From positions 1,830,001-1,862,000 of the forward strand of contig NC_010814.1 of assembly GCF_000020385.1 (NCBI RefSeq): DNA of 32,000 nt. Direction: 5' to 3'. Origin of the DNA: Trichlorobacter lovleyi SZ (GTDB taxonomy: Bacteria > Desulfobacterota > Desulfuromonadia > Geobacterales > Pseudopelobacteraceae). This document shows, one piece after another, positions 8,981 through 29,700 of this stretch. Both the position numbers and the translations under genes were made by a program. Every line of letters begins with the position of its first letter. Position 1 is the first letter of the stretch. The notes beneath the pieces were generated by a model. The model did not search any database. It saw nothing but the letters and a program-made list of their open reading frames with translations, and was not told the DNA's origin.

Positions 8981-10240
8981 TCAGGAGTTGCGGCGTTGCC
9001 CTTGAACAATACTGTTCCGCCAGTTGAAGGCGTCCAGTTGGGCAGCCAGCAGTTGGTCAAGGCTGATGGACAAGGCATCAAGCAGCTTCTGTACGACAAC
9101 AAAGTCTGCTTTTTCCAACCGCTCCGCCAATAACAACAACATACCGAGTTGCCCATCACGACGCAGCAGGGCATCAGCCATATCTTCGGACAGATTCAGG
9201 CTTTCAACTACATGTTCCATCGGGGTTTCGTAGAGGGCATCCAACAATGACAGGATACCGGTCAAAAAGGCGGTTTCCACAAGGTCGCTGGTACGGCTCT
9301 GACCGGTACGCTGCATCATCAGCAGTTCCATCAAGCGTCCCCGTACGGCAGCCATTTCAAGCAGCGGCGAGTTCAGACCCCGTTCATCCTTGCCGGCAAA
9401 CAGGGCCAGTTGTACCCAGCGCCGCAGATGGTTTATCCCCAGAATCATGATGGCATGACGGATATTCTTGATCTTCTCCCGCAGGCCGATCATGACCGAG
9501 TTAACCAGCTTCAGCAGGTTAAAGGTCAGGCTGGGGTTCTCCCGGAAGGTTTCTTCCACCTCATCAATATCCCAGTTCTCATTTAACTGTTGCAGCAGCT
9601 TCATCATGGCAATCCCGGAGGGATCAATCCGCTTCTGGCCTATAATGACCGGCCGTTCAAAAAAATAGCCCTGGAACAGTTCAAAACCGTACTCCAGGCA
9701 TTGCTCAAATACCTCGACGGTCTCAACCCGTTCTGCCAGCAGTTGAACCGGGTACTTTCGCAGGTTTGCCGCTATGCCGGACAGCTCAGCCGGGTCGGTG
9801 GCCATGATGTCCACCTTGACAATATCCACCATTTTGTAAAAGGCGGAGTGTTCCGGCGCATAGATATGGTCATCCAGGGCAATTTTAAAGCCCATTGACT
9901 TCAACTCACTGCAGCGCAGGCGAACGTTATCGTCAAGTTCGATGGTTTCCAGGATCTCCAGTACCGATTGTTGAATCGGCAACAGCTCCAGCATTTCCGA
10001 ATGCAGCACCCCGGCGGTGATATTCAGGAAGCCGAATTTGTCGCCCAGCACATCCTGGAGACCGAAATCCGACAATGCACTGGATATGACCGAAGCCGAT
10101 GCCTGGGCCTGGCTCTCAAACTGGGCAGTCGTGTGGTGACTGGCCGCCCTGAAGAGCAGTTCATAGCCGAAGATCTCCTGCTTGCGGTTCAGGATCGGCT
10201 GGCGGCCAATAAAAAATTTGAGGTCAGGTTCAATTGCCAT
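8981..10240 (-). CDS. EAL domain - HDOD domain protein (YuxH/COG3434-type c-di-GMP phosphodiesterase or receptor)
   Basis: FIGRQPILNRKQEIFGYELLFR (ELL variant of EAL), FLNI, LEILET, IALDDH, VKVD, LLAERVE and FQGYFF follow the EAL catalytic-residue order. The C-terminal half (LLKLVNSV..., ILGINHLRRWV) matches HDOD. Confidence 0.85.
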   Translation of the reverse strand: MAIEPDLKFFIGRQPILNRKQEIFGYELLFRAASHHTTAQFESQAQASASVISSALSDFGLQDVLGDKFGFLNITAGVLHSEMLELLPIQQSVLEILETIELDDNVRLRCSELKSMGFKIALDDHIYAPEHSAFYKMVDIVKVDIMATDPAELSGIAANLRKYPVQLLAERVETVEVFEQCLEYGFELFQGYFFERPVIIGQKRIDPSGIAMMKLLQQLNENWDIDEVEETFRENPSLTFNLLKLVNSVMIGLREKIKNIRHAIMILGINHLRRWVQLALFAGKDERGLNSPLLEMAAVRGRLMELLMMQRTGQSRTSDLVETAFLTGILSLLDALYETPMEHVVESLNLSEDMADALLRRDGQLGMLLLLAERLEKADFVVVQKLLDALSISLDQLLAAQLDAFNWRNSIVQGQRRNS

Positions 10241-10264: not shown

Positions 10265-11329
10265 TTAAAGACACAATTTCAGGGTCTCTGCCGCTATCCG
10301 GTCCAGCGGCATGATCTTGTCAACACCACCCAGCTTGATCGCTTCATTCGGCATGCCGAATACCACGCAGCTGGCCTCATCCTGGGCAATGGTCCGTGCC
10401 CCGGCATCGTGCAGCTCCTTCATGCCGTGGGCCCCATCGTCACCCATCCCGGTCATGATCACACCAACCGCATTCTTGCCGGCATAGCGTGCTGCCGATC
10501 GAAACAGCACATCCACCGAGGGGCGGTGACGGGAAACCAGCGGTCCTTCTTTGACTTCAACGTAGTAGCGAGCCCCACTGCGTTTCAGCAGGGTGTGCCT
10601 GTTGCCCGGTGCAATCAGGACATGGCCCCGCACCACTGAGTCGTTGTTTTCGGCCTCTTTGACGGTTACCCGGCAGATACTGTCCAACCGTTTGGCAAAG
10701 GCTGCCGTAAAGTTCTCCGGCATATGCTGGACAATCACGATGCCCGGAGTGTCTTCCGGCAGCATCTGCAGGAAGGCTGAAAGCGCCTCGGTTCCGCCGG
10801 TTGATGCTCCCACCACCACTACCTTTTCGGTGGTCATTATCATGGCCTTGGTATTAGGGGCCTCCATGATGACGTCGGCGGTATATTTGGGGCTGACTTC
10901 ACGTATGGCGCGGATCGGCTTGAGTCTGGCTGCCGCCGCCGCCCTGATGCTGTCACAGATCCGGATACGGGACTCCTCGATAAACTGTTTGGTGCCCATC
11001 TTTGGTTTGGTGATGATATCCACGGCCCCGTATTCAAGTGCCTTCAAAGCGGTTTCGCTGCCGCTTTCCGCCAGACTGGAACACATTACCACCGGAATCG
11101 GGTGTTGGGACATCAGTTTCTGTAAAAAGGTGATGCCATCCATGCGGGGCATCTCCACATCAAGGGTGATCACATCAGGTACCTGTTCAGCAATCTTCTG
11201 CACCGCCACGATCGGATCCTGTGCCATGCCGATCACCTCTATCCCCGGATCGCTGGAGAGGATGTCGGACAAGGTCTGGCGAACCAGGGCAGAATCGTCA
11301 ACTATCAGGACTTTTATCTTGTTTGACAT
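10265..11329 (-). CDS. cheB: chemotaxis response regulator protein-glutamate methylesterase/glutaminase
   Basis: N-terminal REC ([13 protein letters not shown] ... [14 protein letters not shown]), linker, then methylesterase domain ([28 protein letters not shown]). Confidence 0.95.
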
Positions 11330-11333
11330 ACTT

Positions 11334-12206
11334 TTAGTCCTTGCGATACACGGTGTTGGCCACCTGGGTAAAGGGAACCTCCAAGCCGTTTAACGTCTCA
11401 GAGTGTCCGATAAACAGGTATCCGCCAGTCACCAGCTGACGATGAAACTTGTGCATCAGTTTTGCCTGTGTCTGCTTGTCAAAGTAGATTACGACATTAC
11501 GGCAGAAAATGACATCCATTCGCTCACTGATACCGAACTGATCCTCCATGAAATTAACCCGCTTGAAGCTGACGCTGCTACGTAGTTCCGGGGCAATCCT
11601 GACCAGCCCCTTGCTGCGGTCTTTGCTGCGCAGCAGGTATTTCTTCTTCATGGAGAGCGGGATGGTGTCGGTCCGATCCTCGCCGTAGACTGCAGATGAA
11701 GCCTTTTTGATGACCTGAGTACAGATGTCCGAGGCCAGGATCGAGAACTTGAAGCCGTGGTTGGCAGCAGCATAATCACTTAACACCATGGCCATGGTGT
11801 ACGGTTCTTCACCGGTCGAACAGCCTGCAGACCAGATCCTGAAAGGATTCAAGGGGCTTTCGCCGGCCCCCCTGAGCTGCCGCATGGTGGGGATCGCCTC
11901 CCGTACCAGAAAATCAAAATGCTGTGGTTCACGGAAAAAATCGGTCTTGTTGGTGGTGACCACATCAATCAGCTGGATGATCTCCTGCTCTCGTCCCGCC
12001 GGAGAAAAGATAAAATCGGAGTATTCCTGAAAGCTGTGCATTCCCAATGCCTTCAGACGTTTCTGCAGTCTGGCTTCCAGCATGGTTTTCTTGGCAGGGG
12101 GCATCTTGATCCCTACCTCATCGTAGATCAACGCACTGAACTGCTCAAACTCCTTGTTGCGCATACTGCAGAGTTGTGGTGTGGCCTGGCCGCTGTCGTG
12201 GTTCAT
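11334..12206 (-). CDS. cheR: chemotaxis protein methyltransferase, full length (N-terminal helical domain plus SAM-MTase domain)
   Basis: [70 protein letters not shown]. Start placed at ATG 12206 (MNHDSGQ) with GGGAG 9 nt upstream. This removes the 35-nt overlap with cheY implied by the ORF-track start at 12245. Confidence 0.9.
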
Positions 12207-12210
12207 CAGG

Positions 12211-12579
12211 TTACTCCCGGGACAGCAGTTTGTTGACCGTTGCAAGCAGGTCTTCCTGCTTGACCGGTTTCATCAGCCATCCGCTGGCACCTGCGACCCG
12301 TGCCTGTTCAAACAGGTGCTTCTGCGAGTCGGTACTCATCACCAGCAACGGAGTGGAGGAAAATTGTGCCAACTGCCGCACCTCACGGACAATGGCAATG
12401 CCATCCTTGCCCGGCATGTTGATATCGGTAATGATCAGGTCCGGCTCTACCTCTTTGATTCGATCAAGGGCCAGCAGCGGATCAGATACGGTTTCAACCC
12501 GATGGCCGCCATGTTGCAGGGTGAACTTTGCGCTGAGCAACTGGGGCCTTGAGTCATCTATCAGCAGGATGGTTTTCAC
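12211..12579 (-). CDS. cheY: CheY-like single-domain response regulator
   Basis: 122 aa REC: ILLIDDS, DLIITDINMPGKDG, LLVMST, GASGWLMKP. It lies between an MCP gene and cheR. Confidence 0.85.
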   Translation of the reverse strand: MKTILLIDDSRPQLLSAKFTLQHGGHRVETVSDPLLALDRIKEVEPDLIITDINMPGKDGIAIVREVRQLAQFSSTPLLVMSTDSQKHLFEQARVAGASGWLMKPVKQEDLLATVNKLLSRE

Positions 12580-12610: not shown

Positions 12611-15082
12611 TCATACCGGACGGTATGCTAAGGCCTGTTGCCGCGTGCTGTTCAGGCTGAAGAAGGCGATGGTTGTCTTGAGCTGCTCGGCCTGACCAGC
12701 CAGCTCTTCGGTGGTGGAGGCCATCTCTTCAGCTGCCGAGGCATTCTGCTGAATCACCTGATCAAGCTGCTGAATGGCACGATTGATCTGGTCGGCACCG
12801 GCATCCTGTTCTTTACTTGAGGCAGAGATCTCCTGCACCAGCTCGGCAGTACGCTGGATATCCGGCAGGATGGCGGTCAGCATCTGACCGGCAGCCTCGG
12901 CCACCTGGACGCTGCGGCCTGACAGTTCACTGATCTCACCGGCGGCAGTCTGGCTGCGCTCTGCCAGCTTGCGGACTTCAGAGGCAACCACAGCAAATCC
13001 CTTGCCGTGCTCACCGGCCCGGGCTGCCTCAATGGCGGCGTTCAGAGCCAGCAGATTGGTCTGGCGGGCGATCTCTTCAATGATGCTGATCTTGGTGGCA
13101 ATCTCCTTCATGGCGGCCACGGTTTCATTGACCGCCTTGCCGCCCTCACGGGCATCGGTGGCCGACTTGTTGGAGATCTTCTCGGTCTGCGATGCGTTGT
13201 CAGCGTTCTGTTTAATGCTGGAGGACATCTCTTCCATGCTGGAGGAGATCTCTTCGGCAGAGGCAGCCTGCTCGGTTGCACCCTGGGACAGGGACTGGGC
13301 CGTGGCAGAGAGTTGCTGCCCGCCGGTGGCAATGCCGTCAGCTGCTGCCTGTACCTCCCGCACGATCTCCTTCAGCTTCTCCACCATGTTGGCCAGTGAT
13401 TCCATCAGGTCGTCGTTTTCGCTGCGCTTCTTCAGTTCAACCATCAGATTGCCCTGGGCAACCTGCTTGGCATTGGCGGTGATACTGTTGGTTGCTTCAA
13501 TCAGGACGTTCAGGTTGTTCTTGATGTCGTTGAAATCGCCATTGTAGTTATCGGTGATGATCCTGGGCATATCACCTTTGCTGATCCGGTCGACATACTC
13601 GGCTGCCACATTCAGGGGGCCGATCACGGCATCAAGGGTTTCGTTGACTCCGGCCACAATCGCACGGAAGTCGCCCTGGTGTTTGCCGGCATCAGCGCGG
13701 GTGGACAGCTTGCCTTCAACTGCGGCCTTGACTAACAGATTGGCATCGGCCACCAGCGCGTTCACCGCGTCAATGCAGGTGTTGAGATTGTTTTTGATCT
13801 CATTGAAATCGCCCTGATAACTGGCTGTTATTTTTGGTGGGATATCTCCTTTGGAGATCCGGTTGACATAGTCTGCTGCAACCTGCAGCGGTCCGATCAC
13901 CGCATCCAGAGTCGCATTTACCCCAGCAACAATGGCATGAAAGTCGCCTTGATGTCTGGTGGCATCAGCGCGGGTGGATAGTTTGCCCTCTACAGCAGCC
14001 CTGGCAAGCATATTGGCATCTGCCACCAAATGGGTGATCGCATCGATGCAACCGTTCAGGTTGTTTTTGATGTCGTTAAAGTCACCATTATAGCTGTCTG
14101 TTATATGCGGCGGGATATCACCCTTTGAAATCCGGTCGACATACTCGGCAGCCACGTTCAACGGGCCGATCACGGCATCCAGGGTGCCGTTAACTCCGGC
14201 CACAATGGCATGGAAGTCCCCCTTATGCTTCGTGGCATCAACCCGGGTGGCCAGTTTGCCGGCAATGGCAGCTTCGGACAGCAGGTTGGCGTCGGCCACC
14301 AGCGCCTTGATTGCCGTTACCATGTTTGCCATGGAAGCGATGATGCTGCCGTCAGGTGCCTGTTGCGCATCCAGATTAACCGAGAGATCTCCCTGCGAGA
14401 TCTGATTGGCGATCTCGCTGATTCTGACCGGATCATCCCCAAGATAACGGCCAAAGAAACGGCGTAGACTGAGCGACATCAGCACGGCACAGATTACAAT
14501 CAGGATCAGGGCAGCTGCTCCCAGCTTGACGGTTAAGCCAATGAAAGGTGCAAAGAACTCGCTCTGCTTGATACCAACGTACAGCACACCAATGGTTTTT
14601 CCCGCGTTGTCCCGAATCGGTTCGTAGGCGGTGTAATAGGTGGTACCAAGAATCCTGGTTTTGCCGTGAAATGCTTTGTTCTCCTTGAAGATTGCATCAT
14701 GGGCTTTGCCCTGAAGGGTGGTGCCGATGGCCCGCTTGCCCTCTTTGGTCAGCACATTGGTAGAGATACGGGTGTCCCCCATAAAGATGGTGGCAGTACC
14801 ACCGGTCAGTTCCTTGACCTTGTCGGGGATTTCAAAATTGTTATTGATCTGATAGGACCCGGCCAGCAGTTTGTTGTCTACAACAGAAAATGTGGTCCCT
14901 TTTTGATGCAGCAGTTCCTTCAGGGTCGCCATCCGGCTTTCCTGGTTGGCAATAGCAAACTTCTCGATCTGCACAAAGACCGAGTACATGGTCAGGGTTG
15001 TCAGGGCACCGATAATGCAGATAACAACCAGATTGTTGATGATCAGAAGCCTGGTATTGGTTTTCAGTGACCGCCAGAACAT
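12611..15082 (-). CDS. methyl-accepting chemotaxis protein: TM - single-Cache-like sensor - TM - HAMP - 3 x 91-aa poly-HAMP-like modules - HAMP - MCP signalling domain (~34 heptads by my count)
   Basis: Periplasmic segment [17 protein letters not shown]...GKRAIGTTL...[23 protein letters not shown] is sCache-like. Hairpin tip [41 protein letters not shown]. Methylation-type [16 protein letters not shown] sites. The ATG at 15082 has GGAGG 4-5 nt upstream. Confidence 0.92.
12657..14310 (-). repeat. dispersed direct repeat, copy A (3' 1.65 kb of the MCP gene), collinear with 15901..17554
   Basis: Landmarks at 12657/15901, 13568/16812 and 13805/17049 all share the same offset of 3244 nt, so no indels. 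Highest similarity is in the 3' ~0.9-1.1 kb. Confidence 0.9.
13484..14302 (-). repeat. in-frame tandem repeat, 3 x 273 bp (3 x 91 aa), inside the 12611..15082 MCP gene
   Basis: Landmark (c/g)atatc(a/t)cc recurs at 13568, 13841 and 14114, an exact 273-nt period. It encodes repeated ...GKL(A/S)TR(A/V)[33 protein letters not shown](I/M)P..IT..Y.GDFN.IKNNLN..I(D/E)A... Confidence 0.9.
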
Positions 15083-15104: not shown

Positions 15105-15596
15105 TTATTCCTGTGTTCCGCTGGTCTGCAGAGCGGCCATTTCCTGTTCAGAGAAGACCCGGTCGATATCCAGAATCATCACAAAATGTTCTTCATGCTT
15201 GCCCATTCCCTTGATGAACTCGGTGTTGAGGCGGGTACCGATATGGGGAGCCGGTTCAATCTGTTCCGGCTCCATCTCAACCACCTCCTGCACTGAATCG
15301 GCCAGGGCACCCAGAATAGTGGTGTCACCGTCAAGGGTTACTTCAACCACAATGATGCAGGTATTAATAGTTTGTTCTGTCGCATCCATGCCAAACTTGA
15401 GCCGCATATCTATGACAGGCACCACACTGCCCCGCAGATTGATGACCCCCCGCATAAATTCGGGTGTCTGCGGTACTTTAGTTATACTTGTAAACTCAAG
15501 TATCTCTCGTACTTTCGATACATCAAGGGCAAAGATCTCATCGTCCAGTTTAAAGGTCAGGTATTGGACAGTTTCTGTTATAGTTGAAACGGACAT
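15105..15596 (-). CDS. cheW: chemotaxis coupling protein CheW
   Basis: [23 protein letters not shown]...[32 protein letters not shown] is the CheW fold signature. Start at ATG 15596 with GGAGGA 4 nt upstream. The 26 extra residues in the ORF track are read-through of an intergenic palindrome. Confidence 0.92.
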
Positions 15597-15608
15597 AAAA
15601 TCCTCCTG

Positions 15609-15712
15609 AAGTGTGACGTTAGAAGAGTGAGGAGTGAAGTTAGAAGAGTGAAAAGGTTTTCTTTCACCCTTCACCCTTCACCCTTCTAACTTCACACTTC
15701 TAACTACACTCT
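15609..15712 (-). repeat. intercistronic imperfect palindrome (REP-like) between the MCP stop and the cheW RBS
   Basis: Core stem GTGAAGTTAGAAGAGTGAA (15634-15652) pairs with TTCACCCTTCTAACTTCAC (15678-15696) at 18/19 positions. The right arm carries 3 tandem CCCTTCA heptamers (15667-15687). Outer TTAGAAG/CTTCTAA and AGTGT/ACACT pairings extend it. It shares the GAAGGGTGAAG/CTTCACCCTTC motif with 21716..21776. Confidence 0.7.
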
Positions 15713-15719
15713 TGCCTTT

Positions 15720-18326
15720 CTAAAATTTCTCAAATTCATCATCCAGATGGTCTTTGCCCTTAGCGCCCAGGTCAATATGCACGCCACCGCTCTTGGCTTG
15801 TCTTGGTGGTGCCGTGTGGGTTACCAAGGGGCGTTGTTGCGGTGCAGGCCGGGCCGGTTGTTTGTGGGACAGAGCACGCTGGGTGCCGTGGGTGTCAAGA
15901 CTGAAGAAGGCGATGGTTGTCTTGAGCTGCTCGGCCTGACCAGCCAGCTCTTCGGTGGTGGAGGCCATCTCTTCAGCTGCGCTTGCGTTTTGCTGGATGA
16001 CCTGATCAAGCTGCTGAATGGCACGATTGATCTGGTCGGCACCGGCATCCTGCTCTTTGCTGGATGCACTGATCTCCTGTACCAGCTCGGCAGTACGCTG
16101 GATATCCGGCAGGATGGCGGTCAGCATCTGACCGGCAGCCTCGGCCACCTGGACGCTTCTCCCTGACAGTTCGCTGATCTCACCGGCGGCAGTCTGGCTG
16201 CGCTCTGCCAGCTTGCGGACTTCAGAGGCAACCACGGCAAATCCCTTGCCGTGCTCACCGGCCCGGGCTGCCTCAATGGCGGCGTTCAGGGCAAGCAGGT
16301 TGGTCTGGCGGGCGATCTCTTCAATGATGCTGATCTTGGTGGCAATCTCCTTCATGGCGGCCACGGTTTCATTGACCGCCTTGCCGCCCTCACGGGCATC
16401 GCTGGCCGACTTGTTGGAGATCTTCTCGGTCTGGCTGGCGTTGTCGGCGTTCTGCTTGATACTGGAGGACATCTCTTCCATGCTGGAGGAGATCTCTTCG
16501 GCAGAGGCAGCCTGCTCGGTTGCACCCTGAGACAGGGACTGGGCCGTGGCAGAGAGTTGCTGCCCGCCGGTGGCAACGCCGTCAGCTGCTGCCTGTACTT
16601 CACGTACGATCTCCTTCAGCTTGTCCACCATGTTGTAGAGTGATTCCATCAGATCATCATTTTCGCTGCGCTTCTTCAGTTCAACCATCAGGTTGCCCTG
16701 GGCAACCTGCTTGGCATTGGCGGTGATACTGTTGGTCGCTTCGATCAGTACGTTCAAATTATTCTTTATATCATTAAAATCGCCATTATAGTTGTCGGTT
16801 ATAGTCTTAGGCATATCACCTTTGCTGATCCGGTCGACATACTCGGCTGCCACATTCAGGGGGCCAATCACGGCATCGAGGGTTTCGTTGACACCGGCCA
16901 CAATGGCGCGGAAATCACCTTGGTGTTTGGATGCATCGGCACGGGTGGACAGCTTGCCTTCAACTGCGGCCTTGACCAGCAGGTTGGCATCGCCAACCAG
17001 TGCGTTGACCGCGTCAATGCAGCCGTTCAGGTTGTTTTTGATCTCGTTGAAATCGCCGTTGTAGTTGTCTGTAATACGAGGTGGAATATCGCCTTTGCTG
17101 ATCCGGTCAACATACTCGGCAGCTACGTTTAGCGGACCGATGACCGCATCCAGGGTGTCGTTGACACCTTGGACTATTTTGCGGAAGTCACCTTGGTGTT
17201 TAGTTGCATCAGCGCGGGTGGCAAGTTTGCCTTCGACTGCGGCGTTGACGAGCATGTTGGCATCGCCAACCAGGGCGTTAATGGCGTCCATGCAGCCGTT
17301 CAGGTTGTTTTTGATCTCATTGAAATCACCGTTGTAGCTATCGGTAATCTTGGGCGGGATGTCGCCCTTGCTGATCCGGTCGACATACTCGGCGGCAACG
17401 TTCAAAGGTCCGATTACGGCATCAAGAGTTTCGTTGACGCCAACCACGATCTTCTGGAAGTCACCCTGGTGCTTGGAGGCATCGGCACGGGTAGCAAGCT
17501 TGCCGGCAATGGCGGCGTCGGACAACATGGAGGCGTCTTTGATCAGGGCCTGGATCGCCTCGGCCATCTTGTTCATGGCTGCCTGCAGAATACCGGTCTC
17601 ATCCTTGGCAGTGCTGTCAAGTTGGACATCGGTGTTGCCGGCTGCAATTTTGTTGGCTGCATCAACACAGGCATTGATCGGGGTAACGATTGACTTGGTG
17701 ATAAACCAGCCCATGAAGATACCAATGATAAGTGATGCAATACCTAAGACCAGGACTATTGTTTTAGTCTGATTGGCAAGGGCGATCCCCTTTTTACCAG
17801 ATTCTTTGACCAGTTTTTTCTGGTAATCCATGAACTCGCCAATGGCTTTGAAATATTCAGCCTGTGATTGACGAAGCTTACTCGTAAGTAACTGAATAGC
17901 TTCATCACGTTTACCTGATTGGGACAGATCGATGACCTGCTTCTGATCAGCTTGCATTGCGGCACGTTTGTCCTTTACTGCTGCCATCAGTTTTCTGCCG
18001 CTGTCAGTCTTGATCATTTTTTCAAAGTCTTCAATGCCTTTGGTTATTTTCTCCCCTGCTTCCTTGACGCGGGCCAATTCTTTCTGGCGTTCAGCAGGTT
18101 CACTAACCAACAGCATGTTGCGGATAGCCCGGGCTGAGACGTTTGCGCTGATCCGTATGTCTGTCAACAGATCAATCTTTACAATTTTGTCCTCAATCAG
18201 GCTATCCATTTCGTTGTCAAGAGAGGTCACATTTACGTATGACACTACAGCAATAATTGTCAGTAGTATCAAGACCGCTGCAAATCCAACAGCCAACCGT
18301 TTACCAATCTTCATGTTCTTCAGCAT
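15720..18326 (-). CDS. methyl-accepting chemotaxis protein: TM - four-helix-bundle (4HB_MCP-like) sensor - TM - HAMP - 3 x 91-aa poly-HAMP-like modules - HAMP - MCP signalling domain - P/Q-rich linker - C-terminal EFEKF
   Basis: N-terminus [31 protein letters not shown] followed by an all-helical ~165-aa periplasmic region. Second [22 protein letters not shown]. The signalling domain is nearly identical to the 12611..15082 MCP. The ATG at 18326 has AGGAGG 8 nt upstream. Confidence 0.92.
15901..17554 (-). repeat. dispersed direct repeat, copy B, collinear with 12657..14310
   Basis: See copy A. Constant 3244-nt offset; the encoded proteins differ at about 8 of ~368 aligned residues from module 3 to AFFSL (counted by eye). 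Confidence 0.9.
16728..17546 (-). repeat. in-frame tandem repeat, 3 x 273 bp (3 x 91 aa), inside the 15720..18326 MCP gene
   Basis: Same module as 13484..14302, in the same register (offset 3244 nt). Protein modules run [30 protein letters not shown]... / [30 protein letters not shown]... / [30 protein letters not shown]... Confidence 0.9.
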
Positions 18327-18357
18327 ACTCTGTACCTCCTGTGGGTGTTTGAGTCTG

Positions 18358-18954
18358 TTACACAATCTCGCTGTTTCTGACGTTTTGCAGGGTGTTCAAA
18401 ATTGTTGAGCGTACATCGTTGTCAAAAGGTTCGTCATGCCCTGGATAGACCAGATCAATCTCCCGTTTTGACAGCTTAATCAGTGTTTCAATATAACCCC
18501 TTGTGTACCTTCCTCCGCTGGTTCGGATGCGTAGTTGGGTGTCGCCAGAGAACAGCAGCTTCTGTGACTGGCAGTAGAAGGCTACCGAGTCTGATGAATG
18601 CCCCGGTGTGTGCAGCACATCCAGATACTCGTCGCCCGCCTTTATGACCTGATTGTCTTTTAAAAGAGCATCAACACCCGGGCCGGGTACCCAGCCGTAG
18701 ACCCTGGCGCCGTATCTCTGCCGGAACAGGTCTGCCGAAGCCGCGTGGTCAAAATGATTGTGGGTCAGCAGCACCTGCTCAATTGCCACCTTGCCGCAGC
18801 CGGTATAGATCTTGTCAATCTCGTCCAGAATGTAGCCATCGGTACCCGGATCAATCAGGGTGTTGACGGCATCAATCTGGTTCCAGTCCCCCAATAGCAG
18901 ATATGAACGGCAGGTGTAGGTATTGGGGTTTCTGGCCAGCTGAATTACCCGCAT
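18358..18954 (-). CDS. metallo-beta-lactamase (MBL) fold hydrolase
   Basis: [13 protein letters not shown] (H-x-H-x-D-H), [19 protein letters not shown] follow the canonical MBL metal-ligand order. 198 aa. Confidence 0.8.
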
Positions 18955-18961
18955 ACAGTGG

Positions 18962-19570
18962 CTACCCCACCTTTCTAAACAGCTGAGCGTCTGGTGTCAT
19001 CGGTTCAAACAGGTGGCTGATCTCGGTCGGGATCTTTTGCGTGTTTTCTGTGGCAAAAAATCCACCGGGTGCCAGGCTGCGGTGATACATCCTCAAGACT
19101 TCAATCCGCTGTTCATAGGAGAAGTGCAGCAGCACATTCTTACAGACGATCAGCGAGTAATCAGAACCCACCGGCTGCAACTGCAGCAGGTCGTTGTACT
19201 TGAAAAAAACCCTATTACGGATGCGATCAATGACCTTGTGATAGCCGGATTTGCCCGCTACTTCTTCAAAATATTTGCGAAAGATCTCTGGTGGAATCCG
19301 TTGCAGCTCTTCGGTCTTGTATTCTGCAGCCGTGACAATATCGCCAAAGTTGTTTTCGCTGTCATAGTCAGTGGCATCCAGATACAGGGTGTTGAACCCC
19401 ATATCACCCATCCGTTCTGCAAACAGGATTGCCAGGGTGTACGGTTCCTGCCCCAAGGCACAGCCTGCATCCCAGACCTTGATTCTGAGGCGGCCTAAAG
19501 CCAGCTTCAGGGTGTGTTCAACGGCATATTCAAGGACTGGCAGGTCGCGGAAAAAGAAGGTAAAGGCCAT
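18962..19570 (-). CDS. CheR-like SAM-dependent methyltransferase lacking the N-terminal receptor-binding helical domain
   Basis: Begins directly at the conserved FFFRD motif (MAFTFFFRDLPVLEYAV), then IKVWDAGCALGQEPYTLAILF, LDATDYD, LIVCKNVLLHFS, PGGFFATE. It is 202 aa versus 290 aa for the full-length cheR in this window. Its ATG overlaps the cheA stop (TAATG). Confidence 0.75.
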   Translation of the reverse strand: MAFTFFFRDLPVLEYAVEHTLKLALGRLRIKVWDAGCALGQEPYTLAILFAERMGDMGFNTLYLDATDYDSENNFGDIVTAAEYKTEELQRIPPEIFRKYFEEVAGKSGYHKVIDRIRNRVFFKYNDLLQLQPVGSDYSLIVCKNVLLHFSYEQRIEVLRMYHRSLAPGGFFATENTQKIPTEISHLFEPMTPDAQLFRKVG

Positions 19571-21699
19571 TAGCCGAACTGCTCCTGTTCTATCATGGCT
19601 ACTGATTGCACCAACAGGCCCGGATCAAGGATCAGGGCCACCGTGCCATCCCCCAGGATGGTTGCGCCGGATATGCCGCGTACATCTCGATAAAGTTTGC
19701 CCAGGGTCTTGATGACAGTCTGGTGTTCACCCACCACATCATCCACCACAAAGCCGATCCGTTTGCCATTTACCGAGAGGATCACAATCTGTTCAATCTC
19801 CGGCTGGTTGGTGGCGATCTCAAATTCATCCCGCAGGTTGATGTAGGGGGTCAATTCGCCCCGTACATGGGCCAGGTGGCGGCCATGGGTGGCCTGTACA
19901 TCGGCACGGGTCAGTTCAATACACTCTTCCACCATGGTCAGCGGCAGTACAAAGTAGCTCTGGTCGATCCTGACCAGCAGAGTTTCGATGATGGCCAGGG
20001 TCAGGGGAATCCGCAGGGTGATGATCGATCCCTTACCCTGTTCGCTGGCAATGTCGATGGTGCCCCGCAACGCCTCAATCGCTTTTTTGACCACATCCAT
20101 GCCGACACCACGCCCTGAAACGCTGGTGACCTTCTGGGCGGTGGAGAAGCCGGGGGCAAAGATCAGGTTGTATATCTCTTTATCAGTCAGCTCGGTGGTG
20201 GCAGTGATTAGCCCCCGTTCAATCGCCTTGGCCTTGATCCGTTCTTTGTCAAGACCGGCGCCATCATCACGGATGGTGACCAGTACGCTATCGCCAGAGT
20301 GTACAGCTGCCAGATGGACAATCCCCTTGGCTGGTTTACCGGCTGCCTTGCGGACATCGGGCATTTCCACACCATGATCAATACTGTTGCGGATCAGGTG
20401 CACCAGCGGGTCGTTCAGCTTTTCAATAACGGTCTTGTCCAGCTCGGTCTCTGCGCCGGTTGTTTCCAGATCAATCTCTTTGCCCAGCTCTGCAGAGAGA
20501 TCCCGCACCAATCGTTTGAACTTGCTGAAGGTTGAACCGATCGGCAGCATCCGCATGTTAAGGGTAGTATCCCGCAGCTCAGAGATCAGCCGTTCAACCT
20601 CTTCTGCCACGGCACTGATTTCATTGTCGTGGCGGTTACCGGCGATCTGGGTCAGGTGGGCCTGTACCGTAACCAGTTCGCCCACCAGGTTCACCAGATG
20701 ATCCAGCCGTTCTGCCGGAACCCGGATTGAGAGGGAGGCTTCAGCTGCAGCCGGCGCCGCCGTAGTCCGCTCCTGACGGGCCTGTTTGACCTGTTGCTGC
20801 TCCAGAAGGGCTGATTGTACCTTTGAGACCGGTACCAGCCCCTGTTCCACCAGAATTTCGCCGAACCGCTTCTGCATGGAGAGGATCTTCTGCATCTCCA
20901 CCGGAGAGAGGTCTCCCCGTTCAACCAGAATGTCACCCAGTTTTTTATAGCTGGTGTCACCATCTGAAGTTGTTCCATCGTCAATCAGATCAATCTTCAG
21001 GTCGCAGTCATCTTCCACAAAGATGAAGACATCCTTGATCGCCTCAATGCCACGGGTTGTGGTGAGAATGATATCCCAGTAAAAATAGCAGTGTTCAGGG
21101 GTAAGCTGATCAAGGGAAGGGATGGCGTCCAGGTGGGCCATGACTTCACAGGAACCAAGGTCGCGCAGTTCATTCAGCAGGCTGATCGGGTTGGTGCCAC
21201 CCAGCATGATTTCCGGCAGCGGTTTGAAGCGGATGCGGTAGGTGCGGCTGGTGTCTGCTTCAGCTGATTGTGCAGGAGCAGCTGCAACAGGTTCCTGCTT
21301 CAGTTTGGTTGCCTGGGGTAATAGCTGTTGCAGGCCATCAATAATCCGCTGGCCGTTTGCTTCATCTGCCGGAGGGCCACCAGCCGATGCCTCCAGCATG
21401 GTGGTGATCTGGTCCCGTGCCTGCAGGGTAAGATCAAGCAGGCAACGGGTGACCTGCATCTTGCCGTTTCTGACCTGATCAAAGACCGTTTCAACCTCAT
21501 GGGTAAAGCGGGCAATGTCATCAAAGCCAAACATGGCACCGGAACCTTTGATGGTGTGCATGGCCCGGAAGACCCGATTGATCAGGTCGTTGTCCTGGGG
21601 GTTGTCCTCCAGTTCAAGCAGGGAGGTCTCCAGCTCGGCCAGCAGCTCACCAGCTTCTTCGCGGTAGGTGGCTATATGTTGTTCCTGTGGTGATGACAT
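19570..21699 (-). CDS. cheA: chemotaxis histidine kinase CheA (Hpt/P1 - P2-like - inserted tandem helical motif - P3 - P4 - P5)
   Basis: P1 FRAMHTIKGSGAMFG (phospho-His48). Dimerisation IRVPAERLDHLVNLVGELV. N/G boxes DPLVHLIRNSIDHG, DDGAGLD, GFST...SGRGVGMDVV. CheW-like P5 at the C-terminus. The ATG at 21699 has GGAGG upstream. Confidence 0.95.
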   Translation of the reverse strand: MSSPQEQHIATYREEAGELLAELETSLLELEDNPQDNDLINRVFRAMHTIKGSGAMFGFDDIARFTHEVETVFDQVRNGKMQVTRCLLDLTLQARDQITTMLEASAGGPPADEANGQRIIDGLQQLLPQATKLKQEPVAAAPAQSAEADTSRTYRIRFKPLPEIMLGGTNPISLLNELRDLGSCEVMAHLDAIPSLDQLTPEHCYFYWDIILTTTRGIEAIKDVFIFVEDDCDLKIDLIDDGTTSDGDTSYKKLGDILVERGDLSPVEMQKILSMQKRFGEILVEQGLVPVSKVQSALLEQQQVKQARQERTTAAPAAAEASLSIRVPAERLDHLVNLVGELVTVQAHLTQIAGNRHDNEISAVAEEVERLISELRDTTLNMRMLPIGSTFSKFKRLVRDLSAELGKEIDLETTGAETELDKTVIEKLNDPLVHLIRNSIDHGVEMPDVRKAAGKPAKGIVHLAAVHSGDSVLVTIRDDGAGLDKERIKAKAIERGLITATTELTDKEIYNLIFAPGFSTAQKVTSVSGRGVGMDVVKKAIEALRGTIDIASEQGKGSIITLRIPLTLAIIETLLVRIDQSYFVLPLTMVEECIELTRADVQATHGRHLAHVRGELTPYINLRDEFEIATNQPEIEQIVILSVNGKRIGFVVDDVVGEHQTVIKTLGKLYRDVRGISGATILGDGTVALILDPGLLVQSVAMIEQEQFG

Positions 21700-21780: not shown

Positions 21781-22146
21781 CTAGCCGAGTACTTTTTTCA
21801 CAACCGCGATTAGCTGTTCAGGTTTAAACGGCTTGACAATCCAGCCGGTGGCACCGGCAGCCTTGCCTTCTGACTTGCGGGATTCCTGGGATTCAGTGGT
21901 CAACATCACAATCGGGATGAATTTGTTCAGGGCGCCGCCACGAACCCCCTTGATCAGACCGATACCATCCAGGTTGGGCATGTTCAGGTCGGTGATCAGC
22001 ATATCCACCTTCTGGGTGCCCAGTTTGGCCAGGGCGTCCTTGCCATCCACCGCCTCAACCACGTCATAACCGGCCTGCTTGAGGGTAAAGCTTACCATCT
22101 GCCGTACACTTGCTGAATCATCAGCGGTCATAATCAGTTTTGCCAT
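21781..22146 (-). CDS. cheY: CheY-like single-domain response regulator
   Basis: 121 aa REC: IMTADDSASVRQ, DMLITDLNMPNLDG, IVMLTTES, GATGWIVKPF. It lies immediately upstream of cheA in the transcript. Confidence 0.88.
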   Translation of the reverse strand: MAKLIMTADDSASVRQMVSFTLKQAGYDVVEAVDGKDALAKLGTQKVDMLITDLNMPNLDGIGLIKGVRGGALNKFIPIVMLTTESQESRKSEGKAAGATGWIVKPFKPEQLIAVVKKVLG

Positions 22147-22147
22147 G

Positions 22148-22504
22148 TCAGTTTATTCCTCCACACCAGATACAGGGTAGGTCTGCGTTGTGTTTGCAGG
22201 TGGATTGGCGTTGCAGCCCAACACATTCAATAGTTTTTTTTACATCAGGGGAGATACAACCTGAAAAGTTAAAGCGTTTCTGAACACGTAGAGCGGTGCG
22301 ACAGGCTGAACAGATCAGCTGCATACCAGCAAGGTCAATTTCTTCGATGCCGGAAACATCAAGCAGGATATTGGTTGATGGTATCTCTTCAAGAAGCAGA
22401 CCGTGTAATTCTGCAGCGGTGTCAATGGCCAGCCTGCCTGCCACACTGATTTTCAGTGCGCTGCCGTCGCTACTGGTACTATGGGTAAGGGTCAGATCAG
22501 ACAT
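22148..22504 (-). CDS. STAS domain protein (SpoIIAA-like fold) with a Cys-rich C-terminal half
   Basis: LKISVAGRLAIDTAAELHGLLLE...NILLDVSGIEEIDLAGMQLI follows the STAS beta-alpha pattern. There are 7 Cys between residues 65 and 114. The ATG at 22504 has GGAGA upstream. The stop is 1 nt from the cheY ATG. Confidence 0.7.
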   Translation of the reverse strand: MSDLTLTHSTSSDGSALKISVAGRLAIDTAAELHGLLLEEIPSTNILLDVSGIEEIDLAGMQLICSACRTALRVQKRFNFSGCISPDVKKTIECVGLQRQSTCKHNADLPCIWCGGIN

Positions 22505-22519: not shown

Positions 22520-24313
22520 TTAAAATAAATCAACATTATCACCAAACTCGGAATCACTGCCGGTACTGTCCTGCTGCTTCTGCAGTGAGAGTTGGACGCC
22601 ATGCCGCGCTGCCATCATTTCATGGATCATCCGTTCGCTTTCCATGGTGTAGCGCTGCTCCATGTGACGCAGGTTGTCTCGAAACTCATTTGAGGCCGGT
22701 ACCAGTGTCCGGGCCTCGGTATAAATCTGTTCAAGGGACTGTACTGCCTGTTCGGTCTGTTGCAGGATCTCTTCATGCACATGAATACTGGATGTGGTCA
22801 GATTAATTTCGTCTGAAAGTGACTCTGCCGTAATTGCCAGTGTTGAAAGCTGTTGCAGCAGGGAACGGTTAATGGCAGACAGGGATGAAATAATCTGCCG
22901 GGCCTCCTGCTCCATCTCGCTTACCTGGTTCGAACTGTCACCGGCCTCCAGAAAATTCAGATCCGTCATGCTGGCGGTGATACCGTTAATCGCTTGCAGT
23001 GTGCTTGAGACCGCCTCAGTCTGGACAACAGCCTCCAAAGAAAGTCGCTTGATCGCTTCAGCCAGTACCCCCAGAGCAGCCCCCTGAGGTCCGGTGTGGG
23101 CTGCCTTGATCTGGGCGTTCAAGGCGATCAGGTCGATCTCGGAACCAACCGCTTCGATATCACTGACAAATCCGCCTATCTCTGCCATGGTACCGGTTAC
23201 CTTCTGCATGGCAGTTGCAAGTTCATGGTCTGCCTTTTCACAGTTTTGCAGAATCAGGGTGACTTGATGCATCTCCTTTTCCATGGTTTCCAGGAGGGAA
23301 GTCTCGGCAGAACCCGAATTGCCCATCAGCGTCTGTTGTAATTCCAGGCTGATCTGGGTCTGTTTTGATCCAATATCCCGCAGGCTATCCAGAATGGTGT
23401 TTGTGGCCTTGCTCAGCTGGTCTGCGGCATGCCTGGTCTGTGCGGTTTGCAGTTCACAGATATCGCCGATTTCCGCAACCACGGCCGGACAGGTGTTGTC
23501 GTTGGGAGTTGCGTGACTGCAGGTATGTTGCATTAGTTTCTCAAGCGCCTCAATCACATGCTCGATCTGCTGCCGGGTGATGTCATGAAACTGCATGGAT
23601 GCCACCACCGCACCGATATCAGAAGCGATCTGTTCTGATATCAGGGCAACCTGATTGCCGGTGGCAGAGCAGGTGGTGTTCAAGCCAGACAGGGTCTCAA
23701 GGTTGTTGCCGACAGCGGTCAGGATCTTGTGAGCATCGGTGTACTGGTGTTCTTCTGTGGTGCGTACCATCTGCAGGTTGTTGCTGATCAACTGCGCCAG
23801 GGCCTGACGCTGGACCATGATGCCGGCAGATTTCTCACTGACGGTCTGGGAGAGCTTTTCAACATCCATGGCCAGGGTGGTAAAACCGGCTCCCAGTTCT
23901 CCCAGTCTGGCAGATTCAATCTTGGTGGAGATGGAGAGCATCCGCAGGGCCTTGTCCATCTTCTGAAACCCTTCCAGGGGTTGTATGACCTTGTCAAGCT
24001 GGACCATGATCTGTTCCAGGGTGCTGCAACTCTGGGTGCCCTGCCTGTTGACCCGCTCCAGATAGTCATTCATGTCACTGAACAGATGACGAAGCCGTTC
24101 TGTCAGCTGGCTGCTTTCAGAGCCGGCAACCAGTTCCACCAGCTCGCTGGAAACGGACGATATTTTTGAGGAGCGGATGGCGAAATCCTGCAGTTTTCCG
24201 CCCAACTCCAGAAACTGATCTTCTGTGCTGCCAGCCAGTCGTTGCAGAATCTGTATGGTAGGAGTCAGATTACTGCTCCATTGTACGACCTGATTGCAGA
24301 GATGCGGAGGCAT
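22520..24313 (-). CDS. soluble (TM-less) MCP-like protein with two signalling-hairpin-tip segments
   Basis: No hydrophobic TM segment. aa 123-155 LRMLSISTKIESARLGELGAGFTTLAMDVEKLS and aa 393-425 IDLIALNAQIKAAHTGPQGAALGVLAEAIKRLS each align to the canonical tip [33 protein letters not shown] at about 13-14 of 33 identities by eye. The rest is heptad-like and helical. Confidence 0.75.
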   Translation of the reverse strand: MPPHLCNQVVQWSSNLTPTIQILQRLAGSTEDQFLELGGKLQDFAIRSSKISSVSSELVELVAGSESSQLTERLRHLFSDMNDYLERVNRQGTQSCSTLEQIMVQLDKVIQPLEGFQKMDKALRMLSISTKIESARLGELGAGFTTLAMDVEKLSQTVSEKSAGIMVQRQALAQLISNNLQMVRTTEEHQYTDAHKILTAVGNNLETLSGLNTTCSATGNQVALISEQIASDIGAVVASMQFHDITRQQIEHVIEALEKLMQHTCSHATPNDNTCPAVVAEIGDICELQTAQTRHAADQLSKATNTILDSLRDIGSKQTQISLELQQTLMGNSGSAETSLLETMEKEMHQVTLILQNCEKADHELATAMQKVTGTMAEIGGFVSDIEAVGSEIDLIALNAQIKAAHTGPQGAALGVLAEAIKRLSLEAVVQTEAVSSTLQAINGITASMTDLNFLEAGDSSNQVSEMEQEARQIISSLSAINRSLLQQLSTLAITAESLSDEINLTTSSIHVHEEILQQTEQAVQSLEQIYTEARTLVPASNEFRDNLRHMEQRYTMESERMIHEMMAARHGVQLSLQKQQDSTGSDSEFGDNVDLF

Positions 24314-24341: not shown

Positions 24342-24740
24342 CTACTGAATCAGTCCCAGGGCGCGGAGTTCCCTGACCAGTTTCTGTTTGCTGATCGGCT
24401 TGACCAGATAGGCGGTGGCGCCATCCTGATAAAATGAGTCAAAGACCGTCTTGGGGTCATCAAGTGCCGTGGTCATAACCACCTTGACCTCCAGATTGGG
24501 CGGCACTTCAAGCTCTTTTTCGAGCTTCCGCACCAGGCGTAACGCCTCCCGGCCATCCATCTTGGGCATCATGATGTCCATGCAGATCAGGTCATAGGGG
24601 GTCTTGGCATCATGGGCCATCTTGAAGGCGGTTACCGCTTCTTCACCATCAACGGCAATCTCGCAGTCAAAGTAAGCCCCCAACAGTTCCCTGAGAATCC
24701 GGCGGGAGATGAAGTCATCTTCAACAATCAGACATTTCAC
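24342..24740 (-). CDS. single-domain response regulator (CheY-like)
   Basis: 132 aa REC: CLIVEDDFISRR, DLICMDIMMPKMDG, VVMTTAL, YLVKP. GTG start with GGAG 7 nt upstream. Confidence 0.85.
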   Translation of the reverse strand: MKCLIVEDDFISRRILRELLGAYFDCEIAVDGEEAVTAFKMAHDAKTPYDLICMDIMMPKMDGREALRLVRKLEKELEVPPNLEVKVVMTTALDDPKTVFDSFYQDGATAYLVKPISKQKLVRELRALGLIQ

Positions 24741-25347: not shown

Positions 25348-26478
25348 TTACTGGCTTTCCTGCACGGTTTCAGATGTTTCATTGGCTGGCAGGTAGATGG
25401 AAAACGTGGTTCCGCTGCCAGGTGCACTTTCAACACTGATGGTGCCACAGTGCTGTTTGACAATGCCATATACCATGGATAGTCCCAGTCCACTCCCCTT
25501 GCCGACCTCTTTGGTGGTGAAAAACGGATCAAATATCTTTGGAAGCAGTTCTCTGGGGATACCACACCCGGTGTCTGAGACGGTCAGATGGATGTAGGTG
25601 CCTGGTGAGAGTTCAAGCGCTGACGCTGATTTGCTGTCAAGCAGGATATGGGCTGTGGCAATGGTCAGCTGGCCGCCATCGGGCATGGCATCACGGGCAT
25701 TAATGGCCAGATTCATCAACATCTGTTCAATCATGCTGCGGTCTACGCTGGCATGGCTGGTGTTCTGGTCGCAGACAAAATTGAGGGTAATGTTGTCTCC
25801 GATGATCCTTCTCAGAAACTTCTCAAAGCTGGAAACCAGGGTACAGAGCTCCGCCTTTGACGGGGTTGCTTCCTGTTTGCGGCTGAAGGTCAGCAGGCTC
25901 TGGGTCAGGCTGGTGGCCCGTTTTGCCGCATCCACAATCATCTGCAGACTTTCATGGTTGGGATCTTCCGGTGGAGTCTGCATCAGCAACATGGTGCTGT
26001 AGCCCCTGATGACGGTCAGGATGTTGTTGAAATCATGGGCCACCCCGCCGGCCAGTATGCCGATCGCTTCCAGTTTCTGCGAGTGGCGCAGCCGTTCTTC
26101 GGCCTTTTTGATCCGCAGCATGACCTTGATATGGGCCACCAGTTCATGGCTTGAGATCGGCTTTTGCAGAAAGGCATCTGCTCCCAGGTCAAGGGCTCTG
26201 ACCCGGTCTTTTGAATCAACATCAGCAGCGGTGATGACAATAACCGGGATATAGGCAGTTGCCGGATTTTGCTTGAGACACCGGATGGTTTCATAACCAT
26301 CCATGTCAGGCATCTGCAGATCAAGCAGGATGGTGTCCGGGTGCCAGCTGCGCGCCAGGTCTAGCCCCTCCTTGCCTGAACAGGCGGTTTTCAGTTGGGC
26401 ATCGCTCAGGTGCTTTTCCAGGGTGCCTTTCATGACCAGCAGGTTGACGTTTGAATCATCAATGGCGAGAATTTTCAT
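25348..26478 (-). CDS. REC - HisKA-like - HATPase_c histidine kinase (receiver at the N-terminus, no TM, no sensor domain)
   Basis: REC: ILAIDDSNVNL, TILLDLQMPDMDG, VIVITA, FLQKP. H-box LAGGVAHDFNNILTVI. ATPase boxes NLAINARDAM, DTGCGI, GSGLGLSMV. Its ATG overlaps the upstream gene's stop (ATGA). Confidence 0.85.
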   Translation of the reverse strand: MKILAIDDSNVNLLVMKGTLEKHLSDAQLKTACSGKEGLDLARSWHPDTILLDLQMPDMDGYETIRCLKQNPATAYIPVIVITAADVDSKDRVRALDLGADAFLQKPISSHELVAHIKVMLRIKKAEERLRHSQKLEAIGILAGGVAHDFNNILTVIRGYSTMLLMQTPPEDPNHESLQMIVDAAKRATSLTQSLLTFSRKQEATPSKAELCTLVSSFEKFLRRIIGDNITLNFVCDQNTSHASVDRSMIEQMLMNLAINARDAMPDGGQLTIATAHILLDSKSASALELSPGTYIHLTVSDTGCGIPRELLPKIFDPFFTTKEVGKGSGLGLSMVYGIVKQHCGTISVESAPGSGTTFSIYLPANETSETVQESQ

Positions 26479-27728: not shown

Positions 27729-27780
27729 GGGTAACTTTCTGGCGCAATCGGGAATGTGTCTGTTTGCTATTGTTTGTAAT

Positions 27781-27796
27781 TGCACTATATGTGCCA
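27781..27796 (-). promoter_or_regulatory. candidate sigma54 (-24/-12) promoter
   Basis: The minus strand reads TGGCAC-ATATA-GTGCA against the consensus TGGCAC-N5-TTGCW. GG and GC are at exact spacing, with one mismatch in the -12 box. It sits ~50 nt upstream of ATG 27728 and immediately downstream of a sigma54 activator gene. Confidence 0.55.
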
Positions 27797-27880
27797 GCGG
27801 AATGGTGTATTTTGCTTTGTATGTAAATTACCGTAAATATTCGGTAGTTTGTTTTTGCAAAGAGATTTTGATTTTATATA

Positions 27881-27934
27881 TGTGTCATCATAGTGTGTCA
27901 TGGCACAGTTGTGACACGTCAATAGTGTATCATG
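27881..27934. promoter_or_regulatory. candidate upstream activator sequence (EBP binding sites)
   Basis: Direct repeats TAGTGTGTCATGG (27891-27903) and TAGTGTATCATGG (27922-27934) are 31 nt apart. There is an extra TGTGTCAT at 27881. Inverted repeat GTGTCA-N11-TGACAC (27895-27917). The centre is ~110 nt upstream of the -24 box, with an AT-rich spacer (27820-27880) between. Confidence 0.4.
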
Positions 27935-29621: not shown

Positions 29622-29700
29622 GATTCCCCCGTTATTGACCTGCATACAAGTATGGTTTATAGGATAACGTGGTAAAAAGATTTTGCAAGCAGGAGCTGCT

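Follow-up and report, generated by a model that had tools for sequence, protein, structure and literature searches.

The DNA analysed here, a 32,000-nucleotide (nt) window of Trichlorobacter lovleyi SZ (NC_010814.1, positions 1,830,001-1,862,000; all coordinates below are positions within this window), carries a chemosensory cluster in which the genes follow in the order CheYa, a 597-amino-acid (aa) protein, a STAS-domain protein, CheYb, CheA, a short CheR, a metallo-beta-lactamase (MBL)-fold protein, a methyl-accepting chemotaxis protein (MCP), CheW, a second MCP, CheYc, CheR, CheB and an EAL-HDOD protein (Table 1). Our subject is the 597-aa protein, identical to WP_012469797.1 / ACD95457.1 of Trichlorobacter (Geobacter) lovleyi, where it is annotated 'methyl-accepting chemotaxis protein'; it represents a widespread family whose members are at present annotated only as 'MCP', 'chemotaxis protein' or 'hypothetical'. 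An initial annotation of the window had described a protein without transmembrane segments in which two MCP signalling tips flank a CheZ-like motif and which ends in an acidic tail, and had placed the tip-like segments (aa 123-155 and 393-425), D244, Q248 and the tail correctly. We argue here, tentatively, that the protein may be a CheY phosphatase built on a receptor-like scaffold.

The 597-aa protein has indeed no membrane-spanning segment, its maximum Kyte-Doolittle mean over 19 residues being 1.35. Pfam MCPsignal (PF00015) matches it in two stretches rather than one (45.2 bits against a cut-off of 34.6, E 1.2e-11); the same family matches 43 of 43 orthologues and stays below threshold, at 12-24 bits, in the alphaproteobacterial relatives. 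In phmmer searches of the PDB, the N-terminal half (aa 43-209) finds its closest solved structure in Tm14, a soluble receptor (3g67, E 6.6e-7), with the tip (LSISTKIESARLGELGAGF) included, and aa 289-552 align to TM1143 (2ch7, E 1e-5). The N- and C-terminal halves also align with each other (BLASTP E 5e-4), which indicates an internal duplication. The protein differs from Tm14 and ordinary MCPs in having two copies with divergent tips, tip positions of the R388/E391/F396 type being partly replaced in copy 2, and in having neither the pentapeptide nor the methylation consensus. The pattern [ASTG][ASTG]xx[EQ][EQ]xx[ASTG][ASTG], strict or relaxed, has no match in the 597-aa protein and six in each neighbouring MCP; we therefore take the protein to be MCP-derived but probably not methyl-accepting. 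Q248-Q249 was considered as a methylation or deamidation pair and rejected, because it is Q-R in the alphaproteobacterial clades and the flanking consensus is missing.

Two AlphaFold2 runs (mean predicted local distance difference test, pLDDT, 79.6 and 81.6) predict an all-helical fold with the last 26-40 residues disordered and with helix breaks at aa 108-109, 266-274, 333-335 and 452-457. The description of two signalling tips holds at the level of sequence, where two tip-like segments are present, but not in the models, both of which draw the presumed tips (138-141 and 408-411) as unbroken helix without a hairpin turn. The molecule could be a rod tipped at both ends or a central four-helix bundle with two arms, and in either topology the models would leave the central motif mid-molecule. 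A Foldseek search of the PDB with the first model returned MCPs and coiled coils, all as weak matches with E above 0.001, and no CheZ among the top 50.

Ordinary MCPs have one tip, as had been remarked, but receptors with two signalling domains are a described class. DosM of Vibrio cholerae (VC1403) has a pair of such domains and reaches across both layers of the F9 cytoplasmic arrays (PMC9321776, PMC7534058); the description is of a double-domain receptor with a structural role, and sensor domains are missing from 98% of its homologues (PMC9321776). The double-signalling-domain build of the 597-aa protein is therefore not new. Compared by description only, both are soluble, sensorless helical chains of roughly 600 aa that carry two tandem MCP-signalling-like segments and are encoded in a che cluster. 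The F9 hallmark is the co-occurrence of DosM with a triple-domain CheW3 in the cluster (PMC9321776), whereas CheW3 is missing from the window, which holds only a single-domain CheW (189 aa) and the P5 domain of CheA, and likewise from the Methylosinus and Agrobacterium clusters; the CheZ-like motif, the Y-T-M-x-x-E-R motif and the terminal peptide described below are, again by description, unreported for DosM. Class 40+24H was tried as a double-tip class and dropped, the literature giving it as a heptad class. We conclude that two assignments are well supported: the 597-aa protein is a conserved soluble, non-methyl-accepting, MCP-derived, DosM-like accessory protein with two tandem paralogous MCP-signalling-like segments, and it is the signature accessory component of a chemosensory cluster that is conserved in Geobacterales and several Alphaproteobacteria and comprises STAS/CheS-like protein, CheY, CheA, CheW, MCPs, CheR and CheB.

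We then examined the conservation of the central motif (aa 240-257, MQFHDITRQQIEHVIEAL), for which the D-x3-Q spacing had been singled out. Neither D244 nor Q248 varies in the 43 close orthologues (46-93% identity), in 80 Geobacterales genome loci, as far as these were inspected, or in a cross-clade set of 36 sequences from four or five clades (Geobacterales, Methylocystaceae, Rhizobiaceae, Novosphingobium) with overall identity of 16-19%. The close orthologues also keep S239, Q241, H243, R247, Q249, E251, H252, E255, A256 and L257 without exception; the strict pattern Q-x-H-D-x-x-R-Q-Q-x-E-H-x-x-E-A-L is present in 74 of the 80 loci, and D-x-T-R-Q is kept in the three of the six exceptions that were inspected. 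All 36 cross-clade sequences share Q241-x-x-D244-x-T246-R247-Q248-x-x-E251-H252, the other fully invariant positions being L23, G38, K131, N399, G411, Y555, M557, E560 and R561. This central run is the densest group of invariant residues in the protein and at least as strict as the tip-like segments; Y-T-M-x-x-E-R, near the C-terminus, is conserved equally. H243 is replaced by G or A in all the alphaproteobacterial clades (Methylosinus, Rhizobiaceae, Novosphingobium). In the heptad assignment D244 falls on position b (or e) and Q248 on f (or b), both facing outwards, and T246 lies in the core. Searches of the accessible literature found no description of the central motif or of the function of the 597-aa family, and the site seems to be undescribed so far.

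A genome scan for the family returned Geobacterales only, and the distant relatives came from tblastn searches of plasmids, in Methylosinus (E 9e-11 over aa 97-564), Agrobacterium, Shinella, Rhizobium and Novosphingobium. The Shinella oryzae relative (L087, 8293-10065) scores 39.5 bits, against a cut-off of 36, with NCBIfam LA_3659_fam / SpiroCoCo_N over aa 334-477; we rejected this identity, judging the match to be helical or MCP-like similarity. Some records name the Shinella reading frame 'type VII secretion target' and cluster relatives 'DNA-binding ferritin-like protein', which are probably mis-annotations of helical repeats. A separate observation is that the second half of the 597-aa protein holds a degenerate copy of the central motif at aa 509-531 (SSIHVHEEILQQ aligned to ASMQFHDITRQQ), in which V512 and H513 are nearly invariant within Geobacterales and not outside.

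The comparison with CheZ used the E. coli reference sequence, verified against 1KMI_Z, and a home-built hidden Markov model (HMM) of 126 diverse CheZs, E. coli CheZ as sole query having gathered only enterobacterial sequences of at least 78% identity. The F-x-D-x-T-x-Q match noticed at the outset is reproduced by hhalign, which sets D244 against D143, T246 against T145 and Q248 against Q147, with P 7.7e-4 to 8.7e-4. Composition predicts 2.3e-4 occurrences of F-x-D-x-T-x-Q-x-I and 0.05 of D[ILMV]TxQ in the 597-aa protein; that the match is fortuitous, the reservation made at the outset, is very improbable, since the motif is invariant across clades. In unbiased library scans Pfam CheZ (PF04344) matches eight of the 43 orthologues, as does NCBIfam Phos_CheZ (NF041271). 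When the central segment of one orthologue, P0077, was scanned in isolation, Pfam CheZ was the sole family below E 0.1 (E 7.4e-7, 29.7 bits), and the corresponding segment of P0054 matches in the same register; in the 597-aa protein itself Phos_CheZ falls on aa 237-266 (E 0.091, 12.3 bits against a cut-off of 350). With our CheZ HMM the real family sequences reach 23.7 bits and reversed controls 6.8, and 104 of 121 align over the motif. Weak, non-collinear matches of the CheZ N-terminus to aa 453-493 were discarded as noise.

The likeness is wider than first noted. F-H-D-L-T-G-Q, close to the motif of the 597-aa protein, is found in 23 of the 126 diverse CheZs. An A-x-x-F-Q element precedes D-x-x-x-Q in CheZ (PMC7750401), and the corresponding residues are S-M-Q-F-H in the 597-aa protein and [AS]-[LM]-Q-[IV]-[GA] in the alphaproteobacterial clades; positions -5 and -2 retain a small and a hydrophobic residue, respectively, and the Q at -1 is lost (this position is H in 23 of the 126 CheZs). 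Like CheZ (PF04344; E. coli 1KMI), the 597-aa protein is all-helical; its D-x-T-x-Q sits on a long helix with the hydrophobic positions in matching register, and further along the chain come a variable, probably flexible linker and an acidic terminal peptide with F as its last residue. The 597-aa protein is nearly three times longer than CheZ, its motif is embedded between MCP-like segments, and motif and tail lie 340 residues apart as against about 55. On these alignments the resemblance of the central motif to CheZ is real, in register and under selection; descent from a common ancestor is suggested.

The tail itself (DSTGSDSEFGDNVDLF) is acidic and ends in F, as had been described, and most family members retain an acidic terminal peptide that closes in F or in LFA. 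The terminal peptide is GDNV[DE]LF in about 78 of the 80 Geobacterales loci, LDDILFA in Methylosinus, EDLFxDALF in Rhizobiaceae and DDFDDGLF in Novosphingobium, against a CheZ consensus of SQxQVDDLLxSLGF. The proposed likeness to the CheY-binding peptide of CheZ is good for the rhizobial sequences (EDLFxDALF against DDLLxSLGF) but loose in the Geobacter clade, where the ending is GDNVDLF.

Family scans found no CheZ, CheC or CheX in the window, as had been claimed, together with three single-domain CheY-like genes; nor were these phosphatases found in the related STAS-CheY-CheA clusters, where checked. Many non-enteric chemosensory systems, among them the ancestral F7 systems (PMC7184735) and the Geobacter clusters (PMC2577667), have no identified way to end the signal carried by phosphorylated CheY (CheY~P). 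Our leading hypothesis, which we hold tentatively and would put somewhat short of an even chance, is that the 597-aa protein acts at the array as a CheY~P phosphatase of the CheZ kind, carried on a receptor-like scaffold. The protein would dimerise into a rod, and its MCP-like segments would place it in or beside the array of receptors and CheA/CheW. The acidic C-terminal peptide, on its flexible linker, would capture CheY~P in the manner of the CheZ peptide, and the central site would then act as in CheZ, D244 pairing with the conserved active-site Lys of CheY, Q248 positioning the hydrolytic water and T246 lying in the helix core like T145. Capture by the tail and a CheZ-type central site would together lead to dephosphorylation of CheY~P where it is made, and the adjacent STAS protein may play a CheS-like role, steering phosphoryl flow among the CheYs. 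It is possible, if rather doubtful, that the family as a whole has gone unrecognised as the CheY~P phosphatase of an old type of chemosensory system for which none is known, probably the 'alpha-group' of Geobacter, with STAS-CheY-CheA relatives in Alphaproteobacteria.

A precedent is offered by CheT of S. meliloti (Agbekudzi et al. 2024, cited in PMC12654446). CheT is reported to be a validated CheY phosphatase that has only DXXXQ and a CheZ-like predicted fold, with no detectable sequence homology (PMC12654446), and shows that cryptic CheZ-like phosphatases exist. By description only, CheT resembles the 597-aa protein as a helical protein of a che cluster with DXXXQ as its only recognisable feature, and its system, too, includes a STAS protein (CheS), with two CheYs and no CheZ; CheT differs in being a separate protein with a CheZ-like predicted fold that is not described as MCP-like. 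CheS, the STAS protein, binds CheA and speeds up the dephosphorylation of CheY1 (PMC12654446).

Several points weigh against a CheZ-like phosphatase. Pfam CheZ does not match the 597-aa protein itself, the best score in the family stands 1 bit under the gathering score of 30.7, and the Methylosinus and Rhizobiaceae clades have no CheZ match at all. The hhalign probability is 23-25%, for a comparison chosen after the motif had been seen, and the statistical support for homology is weak. CheZ G146 is R in the 597-aa protein, Q139 and the full A-x-x-F-Q are only partly matched, and the tail, as said, is a loose match in the Geobacter clade. The invariant E251, H252 and Y-T-M-x-x-E-R have no CheZ counterpart, which suggests a larger site, possibly with another function. 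Exposure of D244 and Q248 is predicted from heptad positions alone. Finally, several CheYs and a CheS-like protein make it possible that the signal is ended by a phosphate sink or by retro-transfer, without a phosphatase.

A serious alternative, which we nevertheless consider on the unlikely side, is that the protein is purely a scaffold or receptor like DosM, organising or stabilising a cytoplasmic or long-receptor array. The invariant residues would then be a structural junction, in which a polar network among aa 241-257, 281-292 and 555-564 joins the two halves, or a site for sensing a ligand, metal or redox state. The description of DosM as structural, with nearly all homologues sensorless (98%; PMC9321776), fits such a role, as do the weak CheZ profile scores; the invariant patches at 30-38, 241-257 and 555-564 plausibly converge mid-molecule, and E251, H252, E560 and H564, which have no equivalent in CheZ, are of a kind typically seen to bind metals or ligands. 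Seven invariant polar residues at 16-19% identity would, however, be rare for a purely structural junction, D244, Q248, E251, H252 and E255 occupy heptad positions b, c and f, and metal-binding or sensor families were not detected in the family-library scans; this reading also accounts for neither the CheZ register nor the tethered peptide at the C-terminus. The tail and central site might instead bind CheY~P without catalysis, altering array activity or sequestering CheY~P in the manner of FliM or a phosphate sink, a role we think improbable. It would suit the strict association with CheY genes (including a two-gene locus of a receiver and a relative of the 597-aa protein), the resemblance of the terminal peptide to CheY-docking peptides and the extreme constraint on CheYb (81-99% identity), as expected of a protein with several binding partners. 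But D-x-T-x-Q is the catalytic signature of CheZ, and binding alone does not obviously need an invariant spacing of D, T and Q.

We give little credence to the idea that the terminal peptide is a CheR/CheB tether of the NWETF/EFEKF kind, which would make the protein a methylation-related adaptor. A flexible linker and a terminal aromatic are common to both, class 34H Geobacter MCPs carry a CheR tether x[FY]xx[FY] (PMC2577667), and CheT forms a complex with CheR in S. meliloti (PMC12654446). The tether rule (xWxxF or x[FY]xx[FY], aromatics at -4 and -1) is not obeyed by the 597-aa protein, which ends NVDLF, nor is there an aromatic at -4 in the DILFA or EDALF of the alphaproteobacterial clades; the protein has no methylation-consensus sites, and a true EFEKF tether is found on a neighbouring MCP. 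Very improbable, in our judgement, is a chance resemblance, or a HisKA_3-type H-box (H-D-x-x-x-Q) in a DHp-like phosphotransfer or phosphatase module. The motif is short, and H243-D244-x-x-x-Q248 reads like the NarX-type H-box. Chance leaves the cross-clade invariance and the Pfam and NCBIfam CheZ matches unexplained; the H-box is removed by the loss of H243, which is G or A in the alphaproteobacterial clades, and ten isolated central segments gave no HisKA_3 match at E up to 10.

If the phosphatase hypothesis is correct, receptor-like docking segments and a CheZ-type motif and tail would in one protein supply the missing termination step for CheY~P. In E. coli the CheZ-CheA-short pairing places the phosphatase at the kinase, and the 597-aa protein would do likewise. 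A D-x-T-x-Q helix within a protein derived from MCP hairpins would amount to a phosphatase physically built into the receptor lattice, and would suggest shared ancestry of CheZ, perhaps also of CheT, with chemoreceptor hairpins. It would also extend the lesson of CheT, that DXXXQ phosphatases lie hidden below sequence-search thresholds, and would bear on the origin of CheZ. Even if non-catalytic, Q-x-x-D-x-T-R-Q-x-x-E-H and Y-T-M-x-x-E-R define an uncharacterised functional site.

Table 1. Features of the 597-aa protein and of the surrounding cluster, in window coordinates.
Feature	Position	Strand	Remarks
ORF (open reading frame) of soluble MCP-like protein	22520..24313	(-)	597 aa, ATG start; working name 'DosZ-like'
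N-terminal MCP-signalling-like segment (aa 43-209)	23687..24187	(-)	PDB phmmer to 3g67; second Pfam MCPsignal stretch
Tip-like segment 1 (aa 123-155)	23849..23947	(-)	K131 invariant; E133 invariant in 89-sequence alignment A3
Central invariant motif (aa 239-257), S-M-Q-F-H-D244-I-T-R-Q248-Q-I-E-H-V-I-E-A-L	23543..23599	(-)	CheZ-like [SA]-x-x-h-x-D-x-T-x-Q
Variable loop between halves (aa 267-274)	23492..23515	(-)	AlphaFold2 DSSP break 266-274; length varies in alignment
Second conserved motif, E281-x-G-D-x-C-E-L-Q-x-A-Q292	23438..23473	(-)	L288, Q292 kept across clades
C-terminal MCPsignal match (aa 359-510)	22784..23239	(-)	Best Pfam PF00015 stretch; 2ch7 alignment
Tip-like segment 2 (aa 393-425)	23039..23137	(-)	N399, G411 invariant
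Invariant motif, Y555-T-M-x-x-E560-R561-x-x-H564	22622..22651	(-)	Cross-clade alignment
Poorly conserved linker (aa 571-587)	22553..22603	(-)	Predicted disordered, pLDDT <50; varies in alignment
Conserved acidic C-terminal peptide, SEFGDNVDLF (aa 588-597)	22523..22552	(-)	
CheY-like receiver CheYa	24342..24740	(-)	Immediately upstream of 597-aa ORF; Pfam Response_reg; synteny
STAS-domain protein	22148..22504	(-)	Matches S. meliloti CheS in domain type and in place within the cluster; Pfam STAS_2; synteny; PMC12654446
CheY (CheYb)	21781..22146	(-)	
CheA	19570..21699	(-)	Hpt, dimerisation, HATPase and CheW domains
Short CheR	18962..19570	(-)	S-adenosylmethionine-binding domain only, no CheR_N
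Metallo-beta-lactamase-fold protein	18358..18954	(-)	
MCP, transmembrane type	15720..18365	(-)	4HB sensor, HAMP + 3x HAMP_2; six methylation-consensus sites; ends EFEKF
CheW	15105..15674	(-)	Single domain, 189 aa
MCP	12611..15082	(-)	sCache sensor, 3x HAMP_2; six methylation-consensus sites
Third CheY-like receiver (CheYc)	12211..12579	(-)	
CheR	11334..12245	(-)	Full length
CheB	10265..11329	(-)	
EAL-HDOD protein	8981..10240	(-)	Cluster end

The core gene order is kept in the 80 Geobacterales loci, and the gene for the 597-aa family is always accompanied by a CheY gene, one contig holding only a 121-aa receiver and a relative. In Methylosinus the order is STAS, CheY, CheA, CheW, MCP, MCP, CheW, CheR, CheB and then the relative of the 597-aa protein, and in Agrobacterium leguminum a comparable gene set adjoins the relative. 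The window cluster probably corresponds to the 'alpha group' clusters of Geobacteraceae, which are described as being of unknown function and family-specific, and are said to be without mcp genes and to carry an HD-type gene (PMC2577667). The function of the ancestral F7 chemosensory systems is likewise unknown (PMC7184735).

CheYb is conserved to the degree given above across loci in which identity of the 597-aa protein falls to 39-49%. Among solved structures CheYb is closest to 4h60/4hnr, 'CheY' (E 6e-36), which is presumably V. cholerae CheY4 of cluster III/F7; E. coli CheY is a far weaker match, at about 1e-19. Among the neighbouring genes, a cytochrome P460 gene (24753-25223, minus strand) lies just upstream of CheYa, and most of the 80 loci show it in synteny with the che cluster; it may link the cluster to nitric oxide or hydroxylamine chemistry. 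The short CheR and MBL-fold protein (18358-19570) and the 4HB-MCP with three HAMP_2 domains (15720-18365), all on the minus strand, behave as a movable sub-module, which follows CheA in the window and lies upstream of P460 in loci such as L032, L040, L046 and L053. The two transmembrane MCPs (15720-18365 and 12611-15082) have identical methylation-site strings; only the first ends EFEKF, the second ending QQALAYRPV. The cyclic-nucleotide or HD-type gene at the cluster end differs between systems, being a receiver-HD phosphohydrolase in A. leguminum p1 (L088, 3267-4409) and EAL-HDOD in the window, and hints at a second-messenger output. Upstream of the cluster, 25348-29741 (minus strand) encodes two receiver-HisKA-HATPase hybrid kinases followed by a sigma-54 activator (receiver, PAS, AAA+, HTH), the end of which is overlapped by a 112-aa ORF (27785-28123) without a family match.

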